A stretch of 25,220 nucleotides of DNA from an uncultured bacterium (GTDB lineage Bacteria > Hydrogenedentota > Hydrogenedentia > Hydrogenedentales > JAEUWI01): assembly GCA_963977445.1 (NCBI GenBank), contig CAXBPH010000084.1:1-25220 (forward strand), read 5' to 3'. Positions 1 to 9,307 of the stretch are shown piece by piece. The position numbers and the translations under genes were made by a program. Positions within the stretch are counted from its first letter, which is position 1, and every line of letters begins with the position of its first letter. Under the pieces are notes generated by a model, which was not told the origin of the DNA, did not search any database, and saw only the letters and a program-made list of their open reading frames with translations.

Positions 1-54
1 CTTAATACCCCGAGCAGCCCAAAAGATCCCGGCTTTGTGAAATATTCGGGCTAA
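1..54 (+). mobile_element. Probable right end of an IS1380-family element (transposase C-terminus plus terminal inverted repeat), partial
   Basis: Frame 1 is open from base 1 and reads LNTPSSPKDPGFVKYSG*. From recall, IS1380 transposases often end in VKYSG/VRNPG/MNNAG-type sequences encoded by the IR (here gtgaaatattcggg, 37-50), with the stop in the flank (ctaa, 51-54). Only 54 nt are visible. Confidence 0.45.
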
Positions 55-92: not shown

Positions 93-1191
93 GGCAAATC
101 CGCCCAGGGGGTTCGTGACTACGGGGCGCAAGCCCTATGTCCGTTCAACCTGCGCTGGCGTGGGGAGTACCCGTCCTGGTAACAGGCGGGTTCGGGTGCC
201 GGAAGGTACCCGGCGATCGGTGACAAAAAGCCGACGGCGAAGAGCTCAACCATGAGAGGGGCGAAAGCCCTTGCCAGTAAAATTCACGTGAGACGATGCC
301 GAACTGCGAAGGGCCGTGATCGGTGGGTAAGGGGGAGCTTCTTACTTCTACCCCCTGAAATCGTCATTCGCCTGTTGTGCGAAGACGCAAACTGCATCGG
401 GACGGGAGTCCCGGTGTACGGTCATCGGTTTTGAGGGATAACACCCTCTAGCGACGTGACGCGTGAATTGGAGGTCAACACTAATGCGGGAACCGCTGAG
501 GCGGCCGGGGTGGTGCTCGGTGCCTGGTCCATTCAACCAGGTGTTTCAAATGCCTCAGTGGGGGAGTGTGGTCTGAGTAGAAGTCGACGGTTTCGAGGGT
601 GCAGACGGCAAGGCAGTCGCATGCATCTTGGTGTGTCTACGGGTGGTGCCGGGACACATATGCCACGACGAAAGGACTGACGGGTTTTTACCCACTTGGA
701 TTTTGCCAGGGGGTGGCTGGGCGGTGTTCAGCCACCCCCTTTACCCTTGGCAGGGATACGGACGGCGTCATGGGGTCCATCGGGAGATGGTCCCTATGAC
801 GCGTGTGCATTGGCAACGCGCAGCAATGTGAGAAAGGAGGTTTCGAACAGAAGGTTTTGAGTGCGCTACCGGTATGAATTGGGCACGGGGTACTTATGGA
901 AGTAAGTGTGCCGTGCCGAGTGGTCGACCGATTTTGCAGAATTCGTGGATGTGTCGTTTAGCGTCTGCCATGAATTCGAGCATTGAATGGGTCGGGCATT
1001 GCTTTTTCCGCTAGATGTGGTAAAGAAACCGGCGAGGCGCTCGTTTCGCAGGCTCTTATTGACGGTGCGAAAGCCCATCACGAGGCTGCGTTACGGGCGC
1101 TTCTGCATCTTGGTCGTTTACAGCATGGCCTTGGTATGCGCGAAAGGGTTAGAACAACGGCTTTGCGGGATTGTGCCTTAAACAATCCCGC
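93..1191 (+). ncRNA. Putative very large structured non-coding RNA, possibly two modules (93-741 and 744-1191); family unassigned
   Basis: GNRA-capped hairpins at 124-135 (GCAA), 169-191 (GTAA), 193-212 (GGAA), 257-272 (GAAA), 394-417 (GGGA), 765-802 (GGGA), 882-917 (GGAA) and 1060-1080 (GAAA). Nested long-range helices at 93-101/698-707, 155-159/273-277, 281-289/461-469, 312-317/418-423, 493-503/551-561 and 924-934/985-995. Mismatches are mostly G-U on the + strand. No credible ORF. Confidence 0.7.
708..742 (+). terminator. Strong hairpin with short U tail; possible terminator or processing stem
   Basis: AGGGGGTGGCTG (708-719) pairs perfectly with CAGCCACCCCCT (729-740) and is followed by TT. 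It lies immediately after the 5'/3' closing helix. Confidence 0.4.
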
Positions 1192-1200
1192 CCCTTCATT
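1165..1200 (+). terminator. Perfect 10-bp hairpin ending the structured region; possible terminator or attenuator
   Basis: GCGGGATTGT (1165-1174) pairs with ACAATCCCGC (1182-1191) around a 7-nt loop. The pyrimidine tail (CCCTTCATT) is weak. Confidence 0.35.
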
Positions 1201-1225
1201 CGGGGGACTTTCCAGCGGGGGCTTT

Positions 1226-1909
1226 ATGATATACCGATGTGTTGCCACGAGCCTCGCGGGGTTCGTCCAACAGGTGGCCACGGCCTATCTTCCGCATGGC
1301 TACTGGTTCTACAGCCAGGGCTTCGTACCCATGGGGAAAAACCCGGAAGCGGTCGATACCAAGCTGATTACAAAGTACGGCGCGGCCCTGTCCAAATGGC
1401 AGCGGGCACGCCGGAAGCGTGCGGGTATGGCCAATATTCAATACCTGCGTTTTGAGCGTACCTTTTTGGTCATGGCGACCAAGGGCCTGCACCCGTTTTT
1501 CGAAGAAGAAGCGGCGGCCATCCGCGATACGCGCAAGGTGCCTATTCGGATTGGAGGTTACTCTATCAGTGTTCGAAAAGGACCCGATGGACGCCTCCAC
1601 AGCCACGTTCGCATTGACCGGGATCCCTACACCGAGTTGATGGCCCACTACCTGGCGCAGGTTGCCCGACAGTCTACTGCCCGGCTCGTGGACGAACTCT
1701 ACCGCCTGCCCTATGAACCCTATGCCCCGGTGCGCCGGCAATATCTGCTGTTGCTGCGGCGGCTCAACGAGATACGCAAGCAGAACGGTCGGCAAACCAT
1801 CCCCGTGGAAGCGCTGCCCCTGCGACGCCGGATCGTCAAACCTTTTGAAACGGACGCCAGCGAAACATCGCGGGCGCCCGGGGAGAACGTCATTCATCCT
1901 CCGGTTTGA
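1226..1909 (+). CDS. Hypothetical Arg/Lys-rich protein (227 aa), possibly nucleic-acid binding
   Basis: Protein-like sequence starts at ATG 1226 (MIYRCVATSLAGFVQQVATAYLPHGYWFY...PYEPYAPVRRQ). It resembles a family of hypothetical proteins I recall from PVC-group mobile elements (not verified). The in-frame extension from TTG 983 overlaps the RNA hairpins and is likely not coding. Confidence 0.7.
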   Translation: MIYRCVATSLAGFVQQVATAYLPHGYWFYSQGFVPMGKNPEAVDTKLITKYGAALSKWQRARRKRAGMANIQYLRFERTFLVMATKGLHPFFEEEAAAIRDTRKVPIRIGGYSISVRKGPDGRLHSHVRIDRDPYTELMAHYLAQVARQSTARLVDELYRLPYEPYAPVRRQYLLLLRRLNEIRKQNGRQTIPVEALPLRRRIVKPFETDASETSRAPGENVIHPPV

Positions 1910-2702
1910 GCGCCGTGATGATTTCTGACGCGGTCTTCCGTATGCCGTTCAGGGAGGCTTCAAGCAATTCGGTGTCTCCCTTGTAGAGCTGGATATAATC
2001 GCTGGATGCCGTGTTAGATTCGAGGCCAATGGCATTTGACACAATGTATGCAACGGCTTCGGCCTCGGTTTCGCGGATTGTTGGCGTACCAGTCAGGCCT
2101 TGATCGGTCCAGTGAAGCATTTCGTGGGCGAGCTCGTGAACCAAAACAGAGAATTCCGCAGCGGGACTCAGATCTGCTCGAATCCGGATCTTGCCTCCAG
2201 ACGAAGCGCCTTCGGCGGTACCCAGGTCGTCCGAGTATTCCAGCACGATACCCTTGGCCGCGACTAAGGTCTTCACATCCTCCGTGTAGTCCTTCGGATC
2301 GCCACTGGCTTCGGCAGGGTGGGGGAGAGGGTCCCCATCGGTTTGCGACAGGTCAAATACATGGGCCGCTCGGAATCGAATGCTGGGTTCGTCATCCTGC
2401 GATTTGGACTCACCCTTGTCGGTGTTTCGGTAGACTACGGGAGCAACGATGGTGATGCTCTGTTCGCTTTTCTTGACGTATCGACCGAGTTTCTTCCAGG
2501 CACGGAACCCGGCGACCTGTGAGGCCTCCGGGAATTGGGATACGATAAGCATGATATTCCGGAAGCTGTATCGGTGAAACTTCGCCATGGCTGTGATGTA
2601 GGCCGTGAGTTGTTCGCTTTTTCCGGCTTCGAGATTTTCCACGAGGGATTTAAGGCCCTGGTCTATGAGTTGTTTTACGTGATCCGTTTTTTCTGTATTC
2701 AT
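1890..2702 (-). CDS. ardC: ArdC-like anti-restriction protein (DUF1738 ssDNA-binding domain plus zincin-like metallopeptidase domain), 270 aa
   Basis: YSFRNIMLI...VAGFRAWKKLGRYVKK N-terminal motif; HELAH...ETEAE metal-binding motif. AAGGAGG RBS lies 5 nt upstream of ATG 2702. Confidence 0.85.
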   Translation of the reverse strand: MNTEKTDHVKQLIDQGLKSLVENLEAGKSEQLTAYITAMAKFHRYSFRNIMLIVSQFPEASQVAGFRAWKKLGRYVKKSEQSITIVAPVVYRNTDKGESKSQDDEPSIRFRAAHVFDLSQTDGDPLPHPAEASGDPKDYTEDVKTLVAAKGIVLEYSDDLGTAEGASSGGKIRIRADLSPAAEFSVLVHELAHEMLHWTDQGLTGTPTIRETEAEAVAYIVSNAIGLESNTASSDYIQLYKGDTELLEASLNGIRKTASEIITALKPEDE

Positions 2703-2704
2703 GT

Positions 2705-2857
2705 CCGCCTCCTTGGGGCTCAGGGTTGTTTTCTTCGCGGAGACGGCCATGCAAAGCGAGCCCGGCGGTCAAGGTGGAGGCGCAGCACTACCTGGACCGC
2801 CGAGGGGGAGCGAAGCTAGGAAACGCGCAAGAGAAAACAACTGGCCCAAGGAGGTGG
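2705..2857. promoter_or_regulatory. Long imperfect inverted repeat covering the ardC RBS; Frpo-like ssDNA promoter candidate
   Basis: Pairings at 2708-2717/2845-2854, 2725-2734/2832-2841 and 2763-2775/2790-2802. TTGACC -35-like hexamer on the minus strand at 2772-2767. Confidence 0.6.
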
Positions 2858-3013
2858 GGCGGGAATGGGAGTCACATCAACTTCGAAAAAAGGTGAATGC
2901 GGAGACGGCGGGGAAACGCAGGGGGCCGCATGCGGCGTACCACGTTAACGGGTCGCATCACGGTTAACAAACCCGCCGGAGACGTCAAAAAGTGGCAACG
3001 TGATGGTTGGTAT

Positions 3014-5113
3014 TCAACCCGGCTGTCGGAAGATATCCACCTTAGTCTCAAGACATCTGCGTAGGCTGAGGTCGCTCACGCCCACTTCAAACCAGCTTCC
3101 AGGTTTTTGATAGAAGTCCAGACCCCGGCCGATCTTGATGACCCAGCCATTGTCCAACCGGATTTCCCGGTCGTGTATGCTTGGATTGTGTTGGACGTCA
3201 AGCTCGACGTCCAATTCGATGAGGCTTTGCTTGAGATCGCCGAGCTTTTCCATGGCGTCTGCCTGCTGCAAACCATCGTCATAGCCCGTAATCAGCGTGA
3301 TCTTTCGTGCTGTGCCGTAATTCACGACTGTCTCACAAAAGCGCACGAAGTTCTGGATTTGATGCTGCAGGCGTATGTAGGGGTCTTCGATTGTGATCGC
3401 TTTCGCTCCCTGGAGGTACGGTCCAAGAATCGAGTCGTAGCTGTGGCCCGTATCACCATACTTGATTGTGAAGTGCTGTTCCGTCGGTTCGGTATCTCGA
3501 ATTTCCAAGACCGGGGGCGTTTCAGAGACAGCTGGAACAGGCTCCGGCACCACGGTGGTACTGGGCGGTGTCTCGGGGACGATAGCGGCGTCTGCCCCCG
3601 GGTTTGTCTCCACCAGGCGCAGGCCACGGCGTGCGGGCTCCTGGGTGGCGAGCGCATTCTTGGACTCCGGACAGAAGACAACCACTTCTTCCCCGCCGGC
3701 CTTGAAGTACGACAGGTTAATCAACGCAAACTCGTCGTCTGGCTTGCGCTTGTTCATCTGCTCCTTCACCCTGCGGCGGCACTCCGTTGCGTAGGCCACG
3801 TATTCTTCAAACTCTTCATCCGTAGGCGGTCCGGTGGGGTGGAGGATTTTCAGGAAGGCGCAAACGGTCTTCTTGATGCCCTTTTCGTCGCGCCCTTCAA
3901 TAGCTTTTCCCAATCGAATCCGCTTGCTGACTTCTTCGTAGCGATTGGTGTGCTTGAATTGGTAGTGGAAGGCCTCCGCAAGGTAATCCGTGATGAATCC
4001 ATAGCGATTCGTGAGAAATTCGCTGCTGTTTTTCGGCATTTCCCAGCCGGGTATGTAGGCGGCGAAGCGGTCCATGACCGCGAGATCCAGCTCGGGCGGC
4101 AACGGCTGAAACAGGTCATATTCCGTCGAATTCACGACTTGATGCACCGAAAGGTCAATATTTCCGACAAAGCTCAGACTGGCATCCGCTATAACCTCTA
4201 CCCCGCGAGAGAAACGGCCATTTGCCATGAAGTCCTTCATGATCTGGATCGTATCGGGGTCTCGTACCTTGATCCCGCCCACCTCGTCGAAGGCAACGGT
4301 ATCCCAATACCCCACCAGGCCGACCTTTTTGCGGTTGTTGTTGTAAAAGAGCGTGGCCTTCGTCGCCTGCCCGCCGGAAATCAGCGTGGCATAGGGGGAG
4401 AACTCGCTGAAGAAGTACGACTTGCCCGTGCCTCGGGGTCCAAGCTCGATGTAGTTGTAGTTTGGTTCCACGAGGGGCGCCAACCGCGCCATAAAATGCA
4501 TCTTGACGCGCTGGGTAAGTTTTGAGGGCTCCAGGCCTACGGAGCGCAAGATGGCATCCATCCACTCGTCTCGCGTGAATTCCTTTCGGCCCTCCATATA
4601 GCGATCGAAATCGAAGCGGGAAAGCTGAATGGGCCGCAGCTCCTCGATGTAGAATGCGTAGTCGTCTTCTTCGATGGCATTGTGCGATAACGTAACTTCT
4701 GCCCAGATACCGCCCTCCAGCAGCCGGTCGTTGTCGCGGTAGAACTTCTCGCCCACAGCGATGCGCTGGGAGTTGAAGTTTTCCAGTGCCGCCCAATGGC
4801 GCTTTTCCTTTTCCACGTAGCGCACGTGCACCTTGTCAATAAAACGGTGCTGCCCCCGCGTGGCCACGCGTGACTGCGCGGCATTCGCTTCGTCGGGTCG
4901 CACATAGTTCTCTTGCAGCGTCGAAAGGACCGCCTCCATTCCCGCGTCCATTTCCGCCTGGTCGCTGCTCGCGCAATACTTGGCCAGGAGGAATTCCAAC
5001 ACAAAAGTGGGCACGTTGGTGCCTTTCTTGATGCGGTGCAGCAAATCCTTCCGAAGCACTTTGCCGTCGTAGGTCGCGTTAAGTTTTTCGTCCAGTGCGT
5101 CCATCGCGCTCAC
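3014..5113 (-). CDS. brxL: BREX BrxL AAA+ protein with C-terminal MIT_C/PLD-like domain
   Basis: N-terminal NVPTFVLEFLL; Walker A GPRGTGKS; Walker B VAFDE; C-terminal IEDPYIR...HDREIRLDNGWVIKIGRGLD. Last gene of the operon, with an ATGA overlap with pglZ. Confidence 0.9.
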   Translation of the reverse strand: MSAMDALDEKLNATYDGKVLRKDLLHRIKKGTNVPTFVLEFLLAKYCASSDQAEMDAGMEAVLSTLQENYVRPDEANAAQSRVATRGQHRFIDKVHVRYVEKEKRHWAALENFNSQRIAVGEKFYRDNDRLLEGGIWAEVTLSHNAIEEDDYAFYIEELRPIQLSRFDFDRYMEGRKEFTRDEWMDAILRSVGLEPSKLTQRVKMHFMARLAPLVEPNYNYIELGPRGTGKSYFFSEFSPYATLISGGQATKATLFYNNNRKKVGLVGYWDTVAFDEVGGIKVRDPDTIQIMKDFMANGRFSRGVEVIADASLSFVGNIDLSVHQVVNSTEYDLFQPLPPELDLAVMDRFAAYIPGWEMPKNSSEFLTNRYGFITDYLAEAFHYQFKHTNRYEEVSKRIRLGKAIEGRDEKGIKKTVCAFLKILHPTGPPTDEEFEEYVAYATECRRRVKEQMNKRKPDDEFALINLSYFKAGGEEVVVFCPESKNALATQEPARRGLRLVETNPGADAAIVPETPPSTTVVPEPVPAVSETPPVLEIRDTEPTEQHFTIKYGDTGHSYDSILGPYLQGAKAITIEDPYIRLQHQIQNFVRFCETVVNYGTARKITLITGYDDGLQQADAMEKLGDLKQSLIELDVELDVQHNPSIHDREIRLDNGWVIKIGRGLDFYQKPGSWFEVGVSDLSLRRCLETKVDIFRQPG

Positions 5114-7638
5114 TCCGTGTAGTCCGTTTCAATAGCCAGCGCACAGTAAGCCGCCAGCGTAGTCGGGTTCAAGGCCTTGACGGTGAACTTGCCCCGGAAT
5201 TCTGCATCCATCCGCAACGCGATTTGTTTGCGCTCGCCGGGAGTCAGGGTAATGGTTCGGGTTGCGGGATTCACCTCGCCGCCGGGACGGGGCTCGCCGA
5301 CCACGTTGCCCTTGCTGTCCTGGGCCTCCAGCAGGATTTCCACGCTGACCTCCTGGGAGAAGAGATCGTCCGCCATCAGGCTGACCTCAAGCACGGGCAG
5401 CTGTGTGGTTATCCGTTTTGCACCATTCTTGTAGTTCAGTTCGACCAGCACCTTTCGTACGTCGTCCTGCTCCGCCACATCCAGCCGCGCGACCAATATA
5501 GGCACCACGGCCTCCGGAAGTGAGGCCCCACCGTGGAAATAGAGATGGCCGTCGCGATAGGGGGCCATGCTTCGGGGTAGTGCCACGTGAGCAAAGTCCC
5601 CGTGAATACCTACTTTTTCCGCACCCAACACCACGCTGTGGTTGTCGCTTGTGCCCGTTCCCAGCATCATGCGGTCGTGGGCATTCACCGGCCAATCGCC
5701 CTGGGGTTTCACGCACACATCGCCCGCTTCCGCCTGCGCATTGAGGAAGAAGCCGTGGTCTGTCACGATAACCGCTTCCTTAAAGCCCAGGCCCCGCAGT
5801 TTGTGTAGCGCCACCCGAATTTGCTTCAGCGTGCCGGGAATCAATCCCAATGTCGTCTCTGGATTGCTTTCCAATTGGCTGTCGATTTCCGTAGAACGGA
5901 GGACCAGGAGGTCCACCGTTTCCGGGATTTTCGGTTTGCCGCGCGCAAAATCACTGAGGAGCATCTCGTGGAAGCGGTCGCCGAGCCGTTTCCGGAACAC
6001 GTCCATGCGCTGCGTCACGTTACATACCGGTACACTACCCAATCGGGGCACGAGCGTGTCGTTTTCCCGCGTCAGTGTCAGCTGGGTGCGCGCACCCGGC
6101 AGCAAGCTCGCCATGCCTACTGGTGTGATGGTGGGTAACTGGGCGTAGGCCACCTGCAACTCCACCGGCCCATCCTCCGCCAACAATTTCTCCAAGGCCA
6201 CGCCCAACTCATAGCGCAGGGCGTCCACCATGAGGTAGGCCACTTTGGTGCCATTCTCCTTGAGCCGGTCCGCCACGAGTCGGTCAAAGGTGTCCGCATT
6301 GGCCATGCGCCCCGTTGGCGGCCAGCCCGCAGATTCCACGTGCTTCGTAAACACGCCCTGCACCCGTTCCGCCAGACGGCCATAGCGCGCCCGGGCCTGC
6401 TGAATGACTTCGTGCATCATGTCATGGGGATCGAGAAAATCGCCCACTGCCTGCTCAAACTCGCGCTGGAGCCGGTCGGCCTCGCGCAGACTGCCGAGGT
6501 AAAAATCGAGGAGGTCGCTTTGGCTCCGGGCATGGTCCGGCAGGAGACGCTCATAGTCCTCACAGGCCTCCACCAGGCTCAGGCCCGCACGGACCAGGGC
6601 CCATTGTGCCTGACTTTCGCCCTTCCCGAGCCACACCGAGTTTCCATGGCCACCCAATACCCGGCGCGTGGCATCGGTGTCATTGTTGGTGATGCCCCGG
6701 ATGGCCCGGCGGAGGAAGGTCCGTTCTTCAAAGGGGAAGGTGTCCCGTTCGCCCAGGTCCTCAATGCTGCCGCAGACCGCAACCAGCTCCATCTCACCCT
6801 CTATAGCCTCCGCCCGTTCAATATAGCCATTGCGTGACTTCGGGTCGTTGCGGAGACGTTCGCACACATCTTCTACAATGGGCTGGGCTTCCACCGGTGC
6901 CCGTGGCACGCCCTCCAGGGATTCGGGCAGTTTTCCGGGCAGGTCAAAGGCAAACTCACTGAACAATACGAAGCGCCACAGTTCATCGGCCAGCGCGTTC
7001 CAGGTCTTACCCCGTGTCTTCACGCCCATGCCCAGGGTCATCTTGAGGAAGTCCCGGGCCTCGGGCATCCAGCCTTCCTGCGCCTTCAACGCGTCCGTCT
7101 GGGTCGCCGTGGGGGAGAGGAGTGCCGCGAGAATTTCCCGGCCCGAGTCCACCTTCAGCGTCGCGCGCAATTGGGGCCAGTTCACGCCGCCGCCAATCGC
7201 ATCGATTACGGCAAAGGCCGGCCCACCGGGCGACGCGGCGAAGACCCGGCGGATATCCGTGGCATAATCCGGCCGTGCACGCAGGCACAGGCTGAGGTAC
7301 TCGTCACCGTCGTCCTTGGGGAACACCGCCCCACACTCGGCGTAGAGGGCGAAGGGATCGACCTGCTTGTCCGCCTCGCTTTCCGTCCGCCGTTTCGGCA
7401 CATAAATCAACACACCCTCTAATGTCCCCTTCGGTGCACCGACGACGCGCAGGGCCATCAGGGCTGCTTCCCGGCTCTCGATGCTGCTTTCGGAGGCGTC
7501 GATCACCGCCAGCTTCTCCGTGGCCAGTCCCAGGCTCAGCGCCCGGAAGCGTTGCTCGGGATCGTAGACCACCAGCACCCCGGCCTTCTTCAGGCGGGGC
7601 AGGAGAACTTCCTGGCTAATGAATTGTTCTATTGACAT
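5110..7638 (-). CDS. pglZ: BREX PglZ phosphatase-fold protein
   Basis: MVDALRYE, PTITPVGMA, VTDHGF and HGGASLPE motifs; 842 aa; operon context. Confidence 0.93.
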   Translation of the reverse strand: MSIEQFISQEVLLPRLKKAGVLVVYDPEQRFRALSLGLATEKLAVIDASESSIESREAALMALRVVGAPKGTLEGVLIYVPKRRTESEADKQVDPFALYAECGAVFPKDDGDEYLSLCLRARPDYATDIRRVFAASPGGPAFAVIDAIGGGVNWPQLRATLKVDSGREILAALLSPTATQTDALKAQEGWMPEARDFLKMTLGMGVKTRGKTWNALADELWRFVLFSEFAFDLPGKLPESLEGVPRAPVEAQPIVEDVCERLRNDPKSRNGYIERAEAIEGEMELVAVCGSIEDLGERDTFPFEERTFLRRAIRGITNNDTDATRRVLGGHGNSVWLGKGESQAQWALVRAGLSLVEACEDYERLLPDHARSQSDLLDFYLGSLREADRLQREFEQAVGDFLDPHDMMHEVIQQARARYGRLAERVQGVFTKHVESAGWPPTGRMANADTFDRLVADRLKENGTKVAYLMVDALRYELGVALEKLLAEDGPVELQVAYAQLPTITPVGMASLLPGARTQLTLTRENDTLVPRLGSVPVCNVTQRMDVFRKRLGDRFHEMLLSDFARGKPKIPETVDLLVLRSTEIDSQLESNPETTLGLIPGTLKQIRVALHKLRGLGFKEAVIVTDHGFFLNAQAEAGDVCVKPQGDWPVNAHDRMMLGTGTSDNHSVVLGAEKVGIHGDFAHVALPRSMAPYRDGHLYFHGGASLPEAVVPILVARLDVAEQDDVRKVLVELNYKNGAKRITTQLPVLEVSLMADDLFSQEVSVEILLEAQDSKGNVVGEPRPGGEVNPATRTITLTPGERKQIALRMDAEFRGKFTVKALNPTTLAAYCALAIETDYTE

Positions 7639-7651
7639 AATGCGTTACCCC

Positions 7652-9307
7652 TCATTCCGCTTCGAGCTCATCGGTGTCCCTCGCCGCAGTCGCAGACTCT
7701 CGACGATCGACCTCCTGAGGGATTAGGCGCTTTTTCAATTCGCTACTGATTTTCTTGCATCGGCCCAAGAAGAACATGTCGTAGTCATCTTCGAAAATGC
7801 CAAATGCGTTCAAGCGTATCAAGTGAGTCTTCATGCAGGCGTCTAATGTTTCGTTGTCTTTCTGGAATTGACGCATGTATTTTGACGGTGGCTTGGCCTT
7901 GATCTCACGCTTGTTCAGCCAATCATCGACGATGGTTATGTTTGCGATGTGGTTGATATGGAAATCATCTTCACCTTGCTTCTTAAGGAAGGCTTTTGGG
8001 AAAAAATGGTGATAGTTCTTGCTGTTGGCCTGTTTGAGCCAATCGTTGCTTATCCGAACCTCAGAATTGTCCATGAAAGACTGTGGCCGCTGGTACGCCA
8101 GGACACAAAGCAGGGCCTTAACGTAGGAGCGACTAAGGGAAAAAAATCCATTATCTTCGATGAAATTAACGGAAATATCTATCGCCCATTCATATTTTGG
8201 AAGTTTACCCTTGATAATCTCGTCCACTTTGCGGATATCCTGGGCCAGATGACTTTCTAGGCTTTGAGAGTATCGCCCGCCTAGCGAGGCACGCCAAAAG
8301 TAGTCGTCCATTCGTTTTTTTGCGTCACCTTTGAGTTTTCCCTTGCTTTGATGGAAGTAATACGCAAATGGGACGATTAAATTTTGGTAGGGCAACAATT
8401 TGGACACGGGAATGCGTAGCGAGTTTCGGAAATACTCCACCGCTTCTTTGATGGCATCCGACGTCGCTGGCCAGGCCTTTACAACCTCAGCCCGTTTGAG
8501 TTTGAGGATGTGGCGTTTCTGGCACTCCTTTGTCAGTAGCACCGACAGCGTCTGCAATACGACCGACTCGGGGACTGTCCCATAGTCCACGGTCTCCAAT
8601 TCGTCCCGCAATTTGTCGTACTTTTCCGCCAAGTCAAAGTTGGCCTTCGAGTCGAAGGTCTTGGCCACCATAATCTCGAAGACCGACAGGGCCTTTCCGC
8701 TCACGTTCAGCCGCGTGAAAATCTCCGTGGCCACCTCGATGGGCGCATCTTTTATCAAGACCGAGGAGAATTGATAGGAGTCAACGCGTTTTCGATAGGT
8801 GTCAATCCGACTGTGATATTCCTGGGGGAACGCATTGAGTTCGGAGAGGGTACCGTGTAGCAGGGTGTGAAGCTTGATGGTGCTGTGCCCATTCGTACCA
8901 GAAAGATCCGTGAGCACGATCGGGTCCTCGTCACCAGCGTCAAGATCCAAGTAAAACTCAGAGAAATCTTCCTCGCGGTCGGCCCGCTGAATCTTCAGCC
9001 CATTTAGACTGGCGAAAAGGGATGTCAGCCGTTGCTGCCCGTCAAGCACATACTGAATGTAGTCACCTTTCGGCGTCACCGGCAGGTCGAGGCCGCCCAA
9101 GTTCCTTATGGACCGCAGCTCTTCCTTGGTTTTCCACAGGATAAACGTCCCGATGGGATAGCCCTTCATAATGCTGTCCAGTAGGGCTGCTGACTTCTGT
9201 TTATCCCACACAAAATCGCGTTGGAACTGGGGAATCTTGATGATACCCTTCGCGATGTCCGTCATGAGTGAGGTGTAGTTTAATGATTGTGGTTCGGGAA
9301 GATTCAT
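7652..9307 (-). CDS. DUF262 (GmrS-like) protein with C-terminal HNH-like region; GmrSD-type type IV restriction candidate
   Basis: PQFQRDFVW, GYPIG, DGQQRLTS and IFTRLN DUF262 motifs. C-terminal NYHHFFPK...HIANITIVDDWLN resembles a DUF1524/HNH motif. Confidence 0.8.
   Translation of the reverse strand: MNLPEPQSLNYTSLMTDIAKGIIKIPQFQRDFVWDKQKSAALLDSIMKGYPIGTFILWKTKEELRSIRNLGGLDLPVTPKGDYIQYVLDGQQRLTSLFASLNGLKIQRADREEDFSEFYLDLDAGDEDPIVLTDLSGTNGHSTIKLHTLLHGTLSELNAFPQEYHSRIDTYRKRVDSYQFSSVLIKDAPIEVATEIFTRLNVSGKALSVFEIMVAKTFDSKANFDLAEKYDKLRDELETVDYGTVPESVVLQTLSVLLTKECQKRHILKLKRAEVVKAWPATSDAIKEAVEYFRNSLRIPVSKLLPYQNLIVPFAYYFHQSKGKLKGDAKKRMDDYFWRASLGGRYSQSLESHLAQDIRKVDEIIKGKLPKYEWAIDISVNFIEDNGFFSLSRSYVKALLCVLAYQRPQSFMDNSEVRISNDWLKQANSKNYHHFFPKAFLKKQGEDDFHINHIANITIVDDWLNKREIKAKPPSKYMRQFQKDNETLDACMKTHLIRLNAFGIFEDDYDMFFLGRCKKISSELKKRLIPQEVDRRESATAARDTDELEAE

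Follow-up and report, generated by a model that had tools for sequence, protein, structure and literature searches.

The window, a stretch of 25,220 nt, carries at its left end a structured non-coding region followed by an acpG-family gene at 1226–1909, which encodes a 227-aa protein with a pI of 10.2. The elements of the RNA and this gene are all on the plus strand. An ArdC-like gene on the minus strand (1890–2750) is convergent with acpG and overlaps its last 20 nt. The minus strand from 3014 to 24736 holds a BREX cluster with inserted genes, comprising an integrase, a brxE-like gene, brxA, brxB, brxC, a UvrD-like helicase, a methylase, a 402-aa gene, a GmrSD-domain gene, pglZ and brxL. A second contig of this genome, C261 (locus L105), has genes at 540–4487 that diverge from the start of the RNA. 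They encode a protein of 112 aa, one of 630 aa that has no Pfam match and by appearance is a putative replication initiator, ParA and ParB. With ParA and ParB on C261 and ArdC, BREX and integrase genes in the window, the setting reads as an integrative or plasmid-like element.

The 227-aa product has 1339 homologues. From 240 genome loci the 80 best were taken, and two further loci from relatives were added (82 loci); among these best 80 the hosts are mostly Planctomycetota, and Hydrogenedentota are the closest. After 11 loci with less than 1.3 kb of upstream sequence were dropped, 71 were kept. In this set (from the best 80 of 240 plus two) the RNA core was found near acpG in 70 of the 71 loci, directly upstream on the same strand in 66 and at 2–5 kb in four. 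The later tests used 51–58 rows, from which near-duplicates (90% cut), loci L089 and L022 and rows without an anchor had been removed; these rows are related, so the shuffle tests overstate significance. Locus L089 is the only one of the 71 with acpG, ParA and ParB yet without the RNA core. In the flanking DNA of 81 loci, ParA is encoded in 33, ParB in 24 and ArdC in 11. Of the same loci, 40 have a gene of about 477 aa that matches no Pfam family and 27 have a 3'-5' exonuclease; these last two families accompany the RNA about 3 kb upstream of acpG (L021–L087). The core profile did not match pTT8 or the Bacillus locus, and profiles of the 3' elements had no match in the pTT8, Bacillus, Leptolyngbya or K2D plasmid loci.

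Order of the domains and the insertion sequence

The original prediction described 744–1191 as a structured module following a first one, and proposed a single RNA of about 1.1 kb, a second RNA or a structured leader of the 1226 gene. In the window itself, Rfam gave no match at the gathering score and no D5 or D6 match at any position, a search of 1–1300 at E values up to 10 returned four weak matches only, and no tRNA or tmRNA was found. The relatives contain, 5' of the equivalent of position 51, two small hairpins, D5, D6, a short variable exon and a GGGCGAY motif, and then D1–D3. RF00029 scored above its gathering score on C261 (48.8 bits) and 5' of D1 in all three relatives scanned (L011–L013). 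D5 has the AGC triad in 51 of 53 rows, with the UN bulge present in the Rfam alignment, and the D6 end (AY) together with the GGGCGAY 5' splice motif was found in 51 of 53 rows as well. The splice sites were placed by motif, which gives exons of 12–110 nt (median 28 nt; 19 nt in this genome). The D6 end and the GGGCGAY motif agree with the mapped junction of Cte-1 and with the Data S1 rows of Roth 2021 (PMC8637638).

D1, without its first ~65 nt, which are on C261, covers 51–497 (3' boundary approximate); it is conserved across the 71-locus alignment, and the domain order was compared with the Data S1 rows. D2, J2/3 and D3 are placed at 503–677 with inferred boundaries. Two of their loops, TGGT (41 of 53 rows) and GGTGGTG (48 of 53), are complementary to the p1 and p2 loops of the 5' half; the 5-bp complement is 97% paired with few compensatory changes, and because the p1 and p2 loops are alike, the individual partners of the D2 and D3 loops are indistinguishable. 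In L018 both p-loops have changed, and both partner loops with them (GCC with GGC), which makes this locus a natural example of compensation in the kissing loops.

Judged from the sequences, 744–1191 almost certainly belongs, as its 3' part, to the split domain 4 (D4) of a circularly permuted (CP) group II ribozyme. With the same near certainty, the element order would be p1-p2-D5-D6-exon-D1-D2-D3-D4(3'), with acpG coming next on the same strand, at the place where a normal intron has its maturase gene. A canonical group II intron, with exons flanking D1–D6 in order, was rejected, as D5 and D6 sit upstream and none was found in the window. Two candidates, GTGCG at 59 as the 5' splice site and the helix of 475–481 as an EBS-IBS pairing, were dropped, as Table S1 of Roth 2021 (PMC8637638) places the site at GGGCGAY on C261.

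In this genome the ribozyme is interrupted by an insertion sequence (IS) about 65 nt into domain 1, and the 5' half (D5, D6, exon, 5' splice site) is on C261. The window begins with one end of this multi-copy IS (1–50), which was also found at seven other contig ends and in one diverged internal copy; the opposite end was found at eight contig ends, C261 included. Positions 51–54 are a 4-bp target duplication, CTAA, with its twin at C261 56–53 (minus strand), and the relatives L095–L097 have a single CTAA with both flanks contiguous. The IS (window 1–54, C261 1–56) has near-identical inverted ends and 4-bp targets of the CTAG/CTAA/TTAA type, and its copies, at least eight, break the assembly. 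The domain 1 strand 475–481 pairs with C261 64–58 across the IS, with all seven pairs formed in 39 of 51 rows (3.6 when shuffled), so that the IS parts the two strands of a covarying helix. The join of C261 to the contig of the window (C84) is inferred from the target duplication and synteny. No intact contiguous ribozyme copy was found in this genome; the copy is probably inactive because the IS, with its 4-bp duplication, lies inside domain 1, which lowers the activity of this copy and leaves class membership unaffected. Another broken copy occurs in Rhodopirellula europaea (L022), where the 5' half of the RNA is missing and most of D1–D4 and acpG are kept.

The RNA of intact relatives is about 1.45 kb long. 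Contigs from four RNA runs of four studies, which have no DNA control and for which strand and level are not given, were mapped to L097 at 85% likeness. They cover the ribozyme RNA and not its flanks. Three start at L097 6491–6515, beside a TATACT box at 6489, and one of 1211 nt spans 6769–7981, including both modules and the equivalent of position 742. Breaks at 6769–6776 in three runs are read as strain variation rather than splicing, and a joint of 7669 with 8037 in one contig (35-nt side, 85% likeness) probably comes from a divergent relative. The contigs of all four runs contained no back-splice joint, a result from which absence cannot be concluded with contigs. The acpG region is barely covered, and this coverage cannot rank expression.

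The domain 4 tail and the exon-binding loop

D4 is closed and lengthened by two strands that pair with the 5' half. The omega' strand (678–685) closes D4 on the bases just before D5 (C261 259–254) and is 97–98% paired with 11–25 compensatory cells. The omega pairing is known from Gdi-1, and the 3' end of the CP intron is described as what is left of the split D4, with omega closing it (PMC13717195). The column scan supports this helix; a coarse pairing test gave it no cognate advantage (2 of 53), because it is short and conserved. The next strand, 691–707, forms the 3' side of a long D4 stem of 17 bp with C261 346–330 (cognate score 28.6 versus 17.0 ± 4.8 for non-cognate partners), and the cognate leader was its best partner in 21 of 53 rows, against 2 of 53 in the control. 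Since both strands pair with the 5' half, 708–740 is an internal D4 hairpin rather than the end of an RNA, and 744–1191 is an extension of D4, about 520 nt long in L097. The 708–740 hairpin is of variable sequence in 10 cofolds, and no U tract at it was scored as a terminator.

The region 744–1200 folds at −201.2 kcal/mol (z −6.04), and none of 100 shuffles was as stable. The helices of the original prediction are present where it placed them: 765–782/785–802 with two non-pairs in register, 882–897/902–917 with 15 of 16 pairs, 924–934/985–995 with 10 of 11, 939–948/968–977 and 1165–1174/1182–1191 with 10 of 10, and 860–864/996–1000 with 5 of 5 including G-U. Only part of this structure is conserved. 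The hairpin 763–803, with a GGGA/GGAA-type loop, is 90.8% paired, and 168 cells are changed on both sides compared with 46 in shuffled alignments (0 of 500; 55 distinct rows). The hairpin 882–917 has at least 8 bp around a GAA loop in 57 of 58 rows (mean z −4.5), although RNAalifold gave no consensus for it. Directly before it lies a nearly invariant single-stranded, non-coding motif, TATGNATTGG (873–882), in which ATTGG could by eye pair with the D6 end, without covariation. The segment 920–1150 is a structured insert that varies by lineage: 856–1200 has z scores of −2.7 to −7.8 in each of 10 folded sequences, the length and fold of 920–1150 vary, and the distance from the column of position 874 to the gene start is 131–549 nt in adjacent loci. 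Because of this variation among relatives, the predicted helices at 860–864/996–1000, 924–995, 1032–1049 and 1060–1080 are specific to the lineage, whereas 763–803, 882–917 and 1165–1191 are shared.

The terminal element (1158–1191) consists of GGCTT and a covarying stem with a conserved GCC loop. Its stem is 94.9% paired, and the 1165–1191 hairpin has 83 changes on both sides versus 21 shuffled (0 of 500). It lies about 40–170 nt from the acpG start in most adjacent loci, and by eye it also precedes the gene in K2D and Leptolyngbya. One RNA contig of a relative stops 16 nt past the equivalent of 1158–1191, which is likely near the 3' end of the RNA. Pairing between this GGCTT and the GCC loop may form a small pseudoknot; by eye, Leptolyngbya has GGTT/AACC, the sole compensatory case (loci L103 and L104).

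Several other relations proposed for this region did not hold. The 11-nt repeat TGCATCTTGGT, noted as common to both modules, is real in the window, but it is a repeat in none of six close relatives, and about 0.2 such 11-mers are expected by chance per 1.2 kb at uniform composition; it is without meaning. A 16-bp helix of 521–536 with 983–998, perfect in the window, was rejected as it is not retained in six relatives inspected. The 5' leader showed no cognate advantage in pairing with 744–871 or 872–1199 (0 and 1 of 53; 2 of 53 in a second test). Coding conservation upstream of 1226 was checked, as the prediction had suggested, and none was found: the conserved ATG at 874 is in frame 0, 1 or 2 with the gene in 28, 21 and 18 of 67 rows, giving peptides of 1–128 aa, and a leader peptide was rejected.

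The loop of the hairpin 326–356 was the best partner of the exon tail, which forms 4.84 of 6 pairs with 343–348 compared with 4.03 in shuffled sets (maximum 4.43). The second loop base pairs with the first exon base (delta) in 47 of 51 rows, and when the same rule is applied to Gdi-1, this base falls on G555, which serves as delta/AUX in the cryo-EM model (PMC13717195). These observations together assign 341–342 to AUX/delta and 343–348 to EBS, and 899–906, which is presented at the top of the hairpin 882–917, copies the spliced junction. A column scan for covarying helices found this 8-nt complement of AUX and EBS, in which the bond equivalent to the scissile one is 904|905 and which covers IBS, delta' and one further base. 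All eight pairs of 341–348/899–906 form in 56 of 58 rows (shuffled mean 13.0, maximum 22, n=2000). Of the 19 distinct sequence pairs, 17 form them all (shuffled 3.2, maximum 9); both misses resemble one-base slips of the anchor. Four positions of the helix each alternate between several pair types, and this covariation makes it very probable that 899–906 pairs with the AUX and EBS loop that also binds the exon tail.

All six EBS pairs are formed by the junction mimic in 49 of 51 rows and by the exon tail in 6 of 51. The computed mean duplex energy is −8.5 kcal/mol for the mimic and −4.0 kcal/mol for the exon, and the mimic is stronger in 50 of 51 rows. Selection for a match to the exon-binding loop is tighter on this element of the D4 extension than on the exon. 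A local stem in the fold of the window hides part of the mimic, so docking requires refolding. When G-U pairs are allowed, at least one additional 8/8 site is present in 30 of 51 RNAs. Outside the alignment, an 8/8 complement is found at the top of a hairpin in a planctomycete plasmid RNA and in Gdi-1 at +845; the single 8/8 sites in Gdi-1, K2D and (weakly) Leptolyngbya are each within chance (expected 0.21, 0.62 and 0.51). Pna-1, an active ribozyme, has no 8/8 mimic in +601..+1250. The available text of the literature describes no EBS-binding element in D4, on which the original Cte-1 structure paper and the supplementary figures of Gdi-1 may also bear. Taken as a whole, a CP ribozyme whose D4 tail carries a junction mimic that would compete for the EBS loop is the best explanation, with a probability of roughly 0.8.

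The AcpG-family protein

The product of 1226–1909 has no sequence match in Pfam, NCBIfam or PDB and no relative among viral contigs. Its relation to TTHC007, the AcpG protein chosen by size and position on pTT8, was found with profiles (probability 95%, E 3.6e-8, 181 columns), and the Gdi gene labelled TTHC007 in Data S1 reached E 2.5e-12 on the HMM of the 1226 protein family. Tests of single sequences against TTHC007 were weak (probability 0.4%; P 0.0018, top of 502). AcpG (TTHC007) shares with the family described here a basic character and the order of secondary-structure elements, but it belongs to a distant clade with 19% consensus identity. The Atlas returned unnamed clusters and one RVT_1 cluster at 0.80, which is a lead only.

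The AlphaFold models of the 227-aa protein and of AcpG have pLDDT values of 91.9 and 92.9. Both match the group II maturase 6me0_C best, from residue ~150 onwards, and the fold scores are modest (Z 9.1 and 8.3, where the tool warns that 7–8 arises without relation). For the 227-aa model the match has an rmsd of 4.2 over 181 aligned residues and starts at residue 154 of 6me0_C, and the top five structural matches are all reverse transcriptases (RTs; Z 7.8–9.1). Foldseek gave no match for the AcpG model at E 0.001 or better. The YADD motif and the N-terminal RT blocks (N-terminal ~150 residues) are absent from the protein; in our reading of the model, the YADD position is taken by the strand-turn-strand YLRFERTF, and a [YF]xDD at any position is present in 1 of 114 members in one set and 0 of 71 in another. 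The protein thus appears in the models as a palm and thumb of maturase-like fold and not as an RT, and without the N-terminal ~150 residues and YADD it would not support retrohoming. A maturase fold is not described for AcpG in the available text of the literature. Roth 2021 found no AcpG homology (PMC8637638), whereas both models here match group II maturases best.

Possible roles of the mimic and comparison with known systems

As in the published class, the ribozyme would back-splice, and its products would be a branched RNA and a small circle, of 19 nt here. The mimic would compete with the exon at the shared EBS loop: because it is tethered there, with a binding strength about twice that of the circle junction, it would have the advantage. 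It would displace the circle after splicing and then park the active site, and it may hold the precursor off until something favours docking of the exon. That factor is plausibly AcpG, a polymerase-dead palm and thumb that could steady D6. A lock or release element is the most likely reading of the mimic from the sequences, held tentatively at somewhat less than an even chance; a second site of cleavage or reverse splicing ranks next, and a staple or protein-binding scaffold after that. In the cryo-EM study of Gdi-1, an unmodelled D4 extension lies against the exon region before release and is disordered afterwards (PMC13717195), a remark with which the lock or release reading agrees.

The mimic could instead be a true second substrate, which the same sequences make possible but rather unlikely. 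The branched ribozyme would then cut 904|905 hydrolytically and free the acpG message, or would reverse-splice: in cis, full reverse splicing might circularise D1 to 904 and join D6 to the acpG-bearing tail, and in trans, two transcripts might be recombined or the element's own DNA nicked. IBS, delta' and one base have the geometry of a target for reverse splicing or exon reopening, the EBS fits the mimic better than the exon in 50 of 51 rows, and Roth 2021 considers that the branched product may act in reverse reactions (PMC8637638). However, one relative's RNA contig is intact through the site, the contigs of the four RNA runs, which drop rare forms, contain no joint at it, the active triple helix may be blocked when the first AUX base is paired, and Pna-1 lacks a mimic. 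In a bolder and slightly less likely version, the small circle would be a by-product whose formation arms the ribozyme for the reaction proper, the attack of the branched RNA on its built-in D4 target 904|905, cutting or re-joining the acpG transcript or acting on the same site in DNA beside the partition genes. If that were true, a CP ribozyme and a dead maturase would form a two-stage, self-targeting RNA switch of plasmid-like elements.

It is unlikely that 341–348/899–906 is a mere folding staple or intermediate and 744–1191 mostly a scaffold, or a region for AcpG binding or translation control like D4a. CP ribozymes do have extra long-range staples (PMC8637638, PMC13717195), but this helix takes up the substrate-binding loop itself, which is incompatible with simultaneous docking of the exon. 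The closeness of the terminal element to the acpG start would suit translation control. The N-terminal part of maturases is their D4a-binding surface, and the modelled protein lacks it, its alignment to 6me0_C starting at residue 154, which argues against a D4a-like role. That 744–1191 is an independent RNA or the 5' leader of the 1226 gene is very improbable. The hairpin 708–740 resembles an end and the terminal hairpin abuts the gene, but a covarying helix ties the region to the first module, the 1211-nt contig of a relative crosses the equivalent of 742, no promoter-like or terminator-like site was found on the plus strand of 1–1900, and where the gene is 2–5 kb off, in four loci, the RNA keeps its 3' hairpins. 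The proposed second RNA is therefore unsupported and a leader function at most secondary. The proposed single RNA stands as to its unity, given the 8-bp covarying helix and the bridging contig, but it is longer than 1.1 kb and begins on the other contig.

The CP ribozyme class and its association with AcpG are already published; the junction mimic was not found in the literature searched. The RNA shares with the CP group II 'T-large' ribozymes (PMC8637638, PMC13717195, 10.64898/2025.12.30.696962) the domain order, the AGC triad, the D6 end, the GGGCGAY site, the short internal exon, p1/p2 loops complementary to D2/D3 loops, the omega pairing, an EBS loop ~350 nt past the 5' splice site, D1–D3 without ORF, and plasmid-type partition genes nearby. 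It differs in its length (~1.45 kb versus 850–1020 nt for the tested CP constructs; PMC8637638), in a ~520-nt 3' D4 with conserved hairpins of its own, and in the covarying mimic, which is found in none of the published descriptions in the parts compared. The hosts, Planctomycetota and Hydrogenedentota, also differ from the set of Roth 2021, as the strings Planctomyc, Pirellula, Rhodopirellula and Hydrogenedent had no match in its four supplement files (PMC8637638). The role of the mimic now becomes a question for base-level experiments on one 8-nt element, one predicted bond and natural compensatory variants.

With canonical ORF-containing group IIB introns and their RT/maturases (6me0_C, 7uim_D), the system shares the catalytic domains, an ORF after the D4 hairpins, and palm and thumb; it differs from them in its permuted order and in its predicted products, a small circle and a T-shaped RNA. 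In 66 of 71 loci here, acpG follows the RNA immediately and in the same orientation, in contrast to the varied orientation reported by Roth 2021 (PMC8637638). That this clade keeps acpG at the maturase position of ordinary introns supports an origin by permutation of an ORF-containing intron, which counters the statement of 2021 that such ORFs were never found nearby (PMC8637638). The same order of RNA and acpG, with a 12-nt exon, is present on a cyanobacterial plasmid (L103, 2600–4010).
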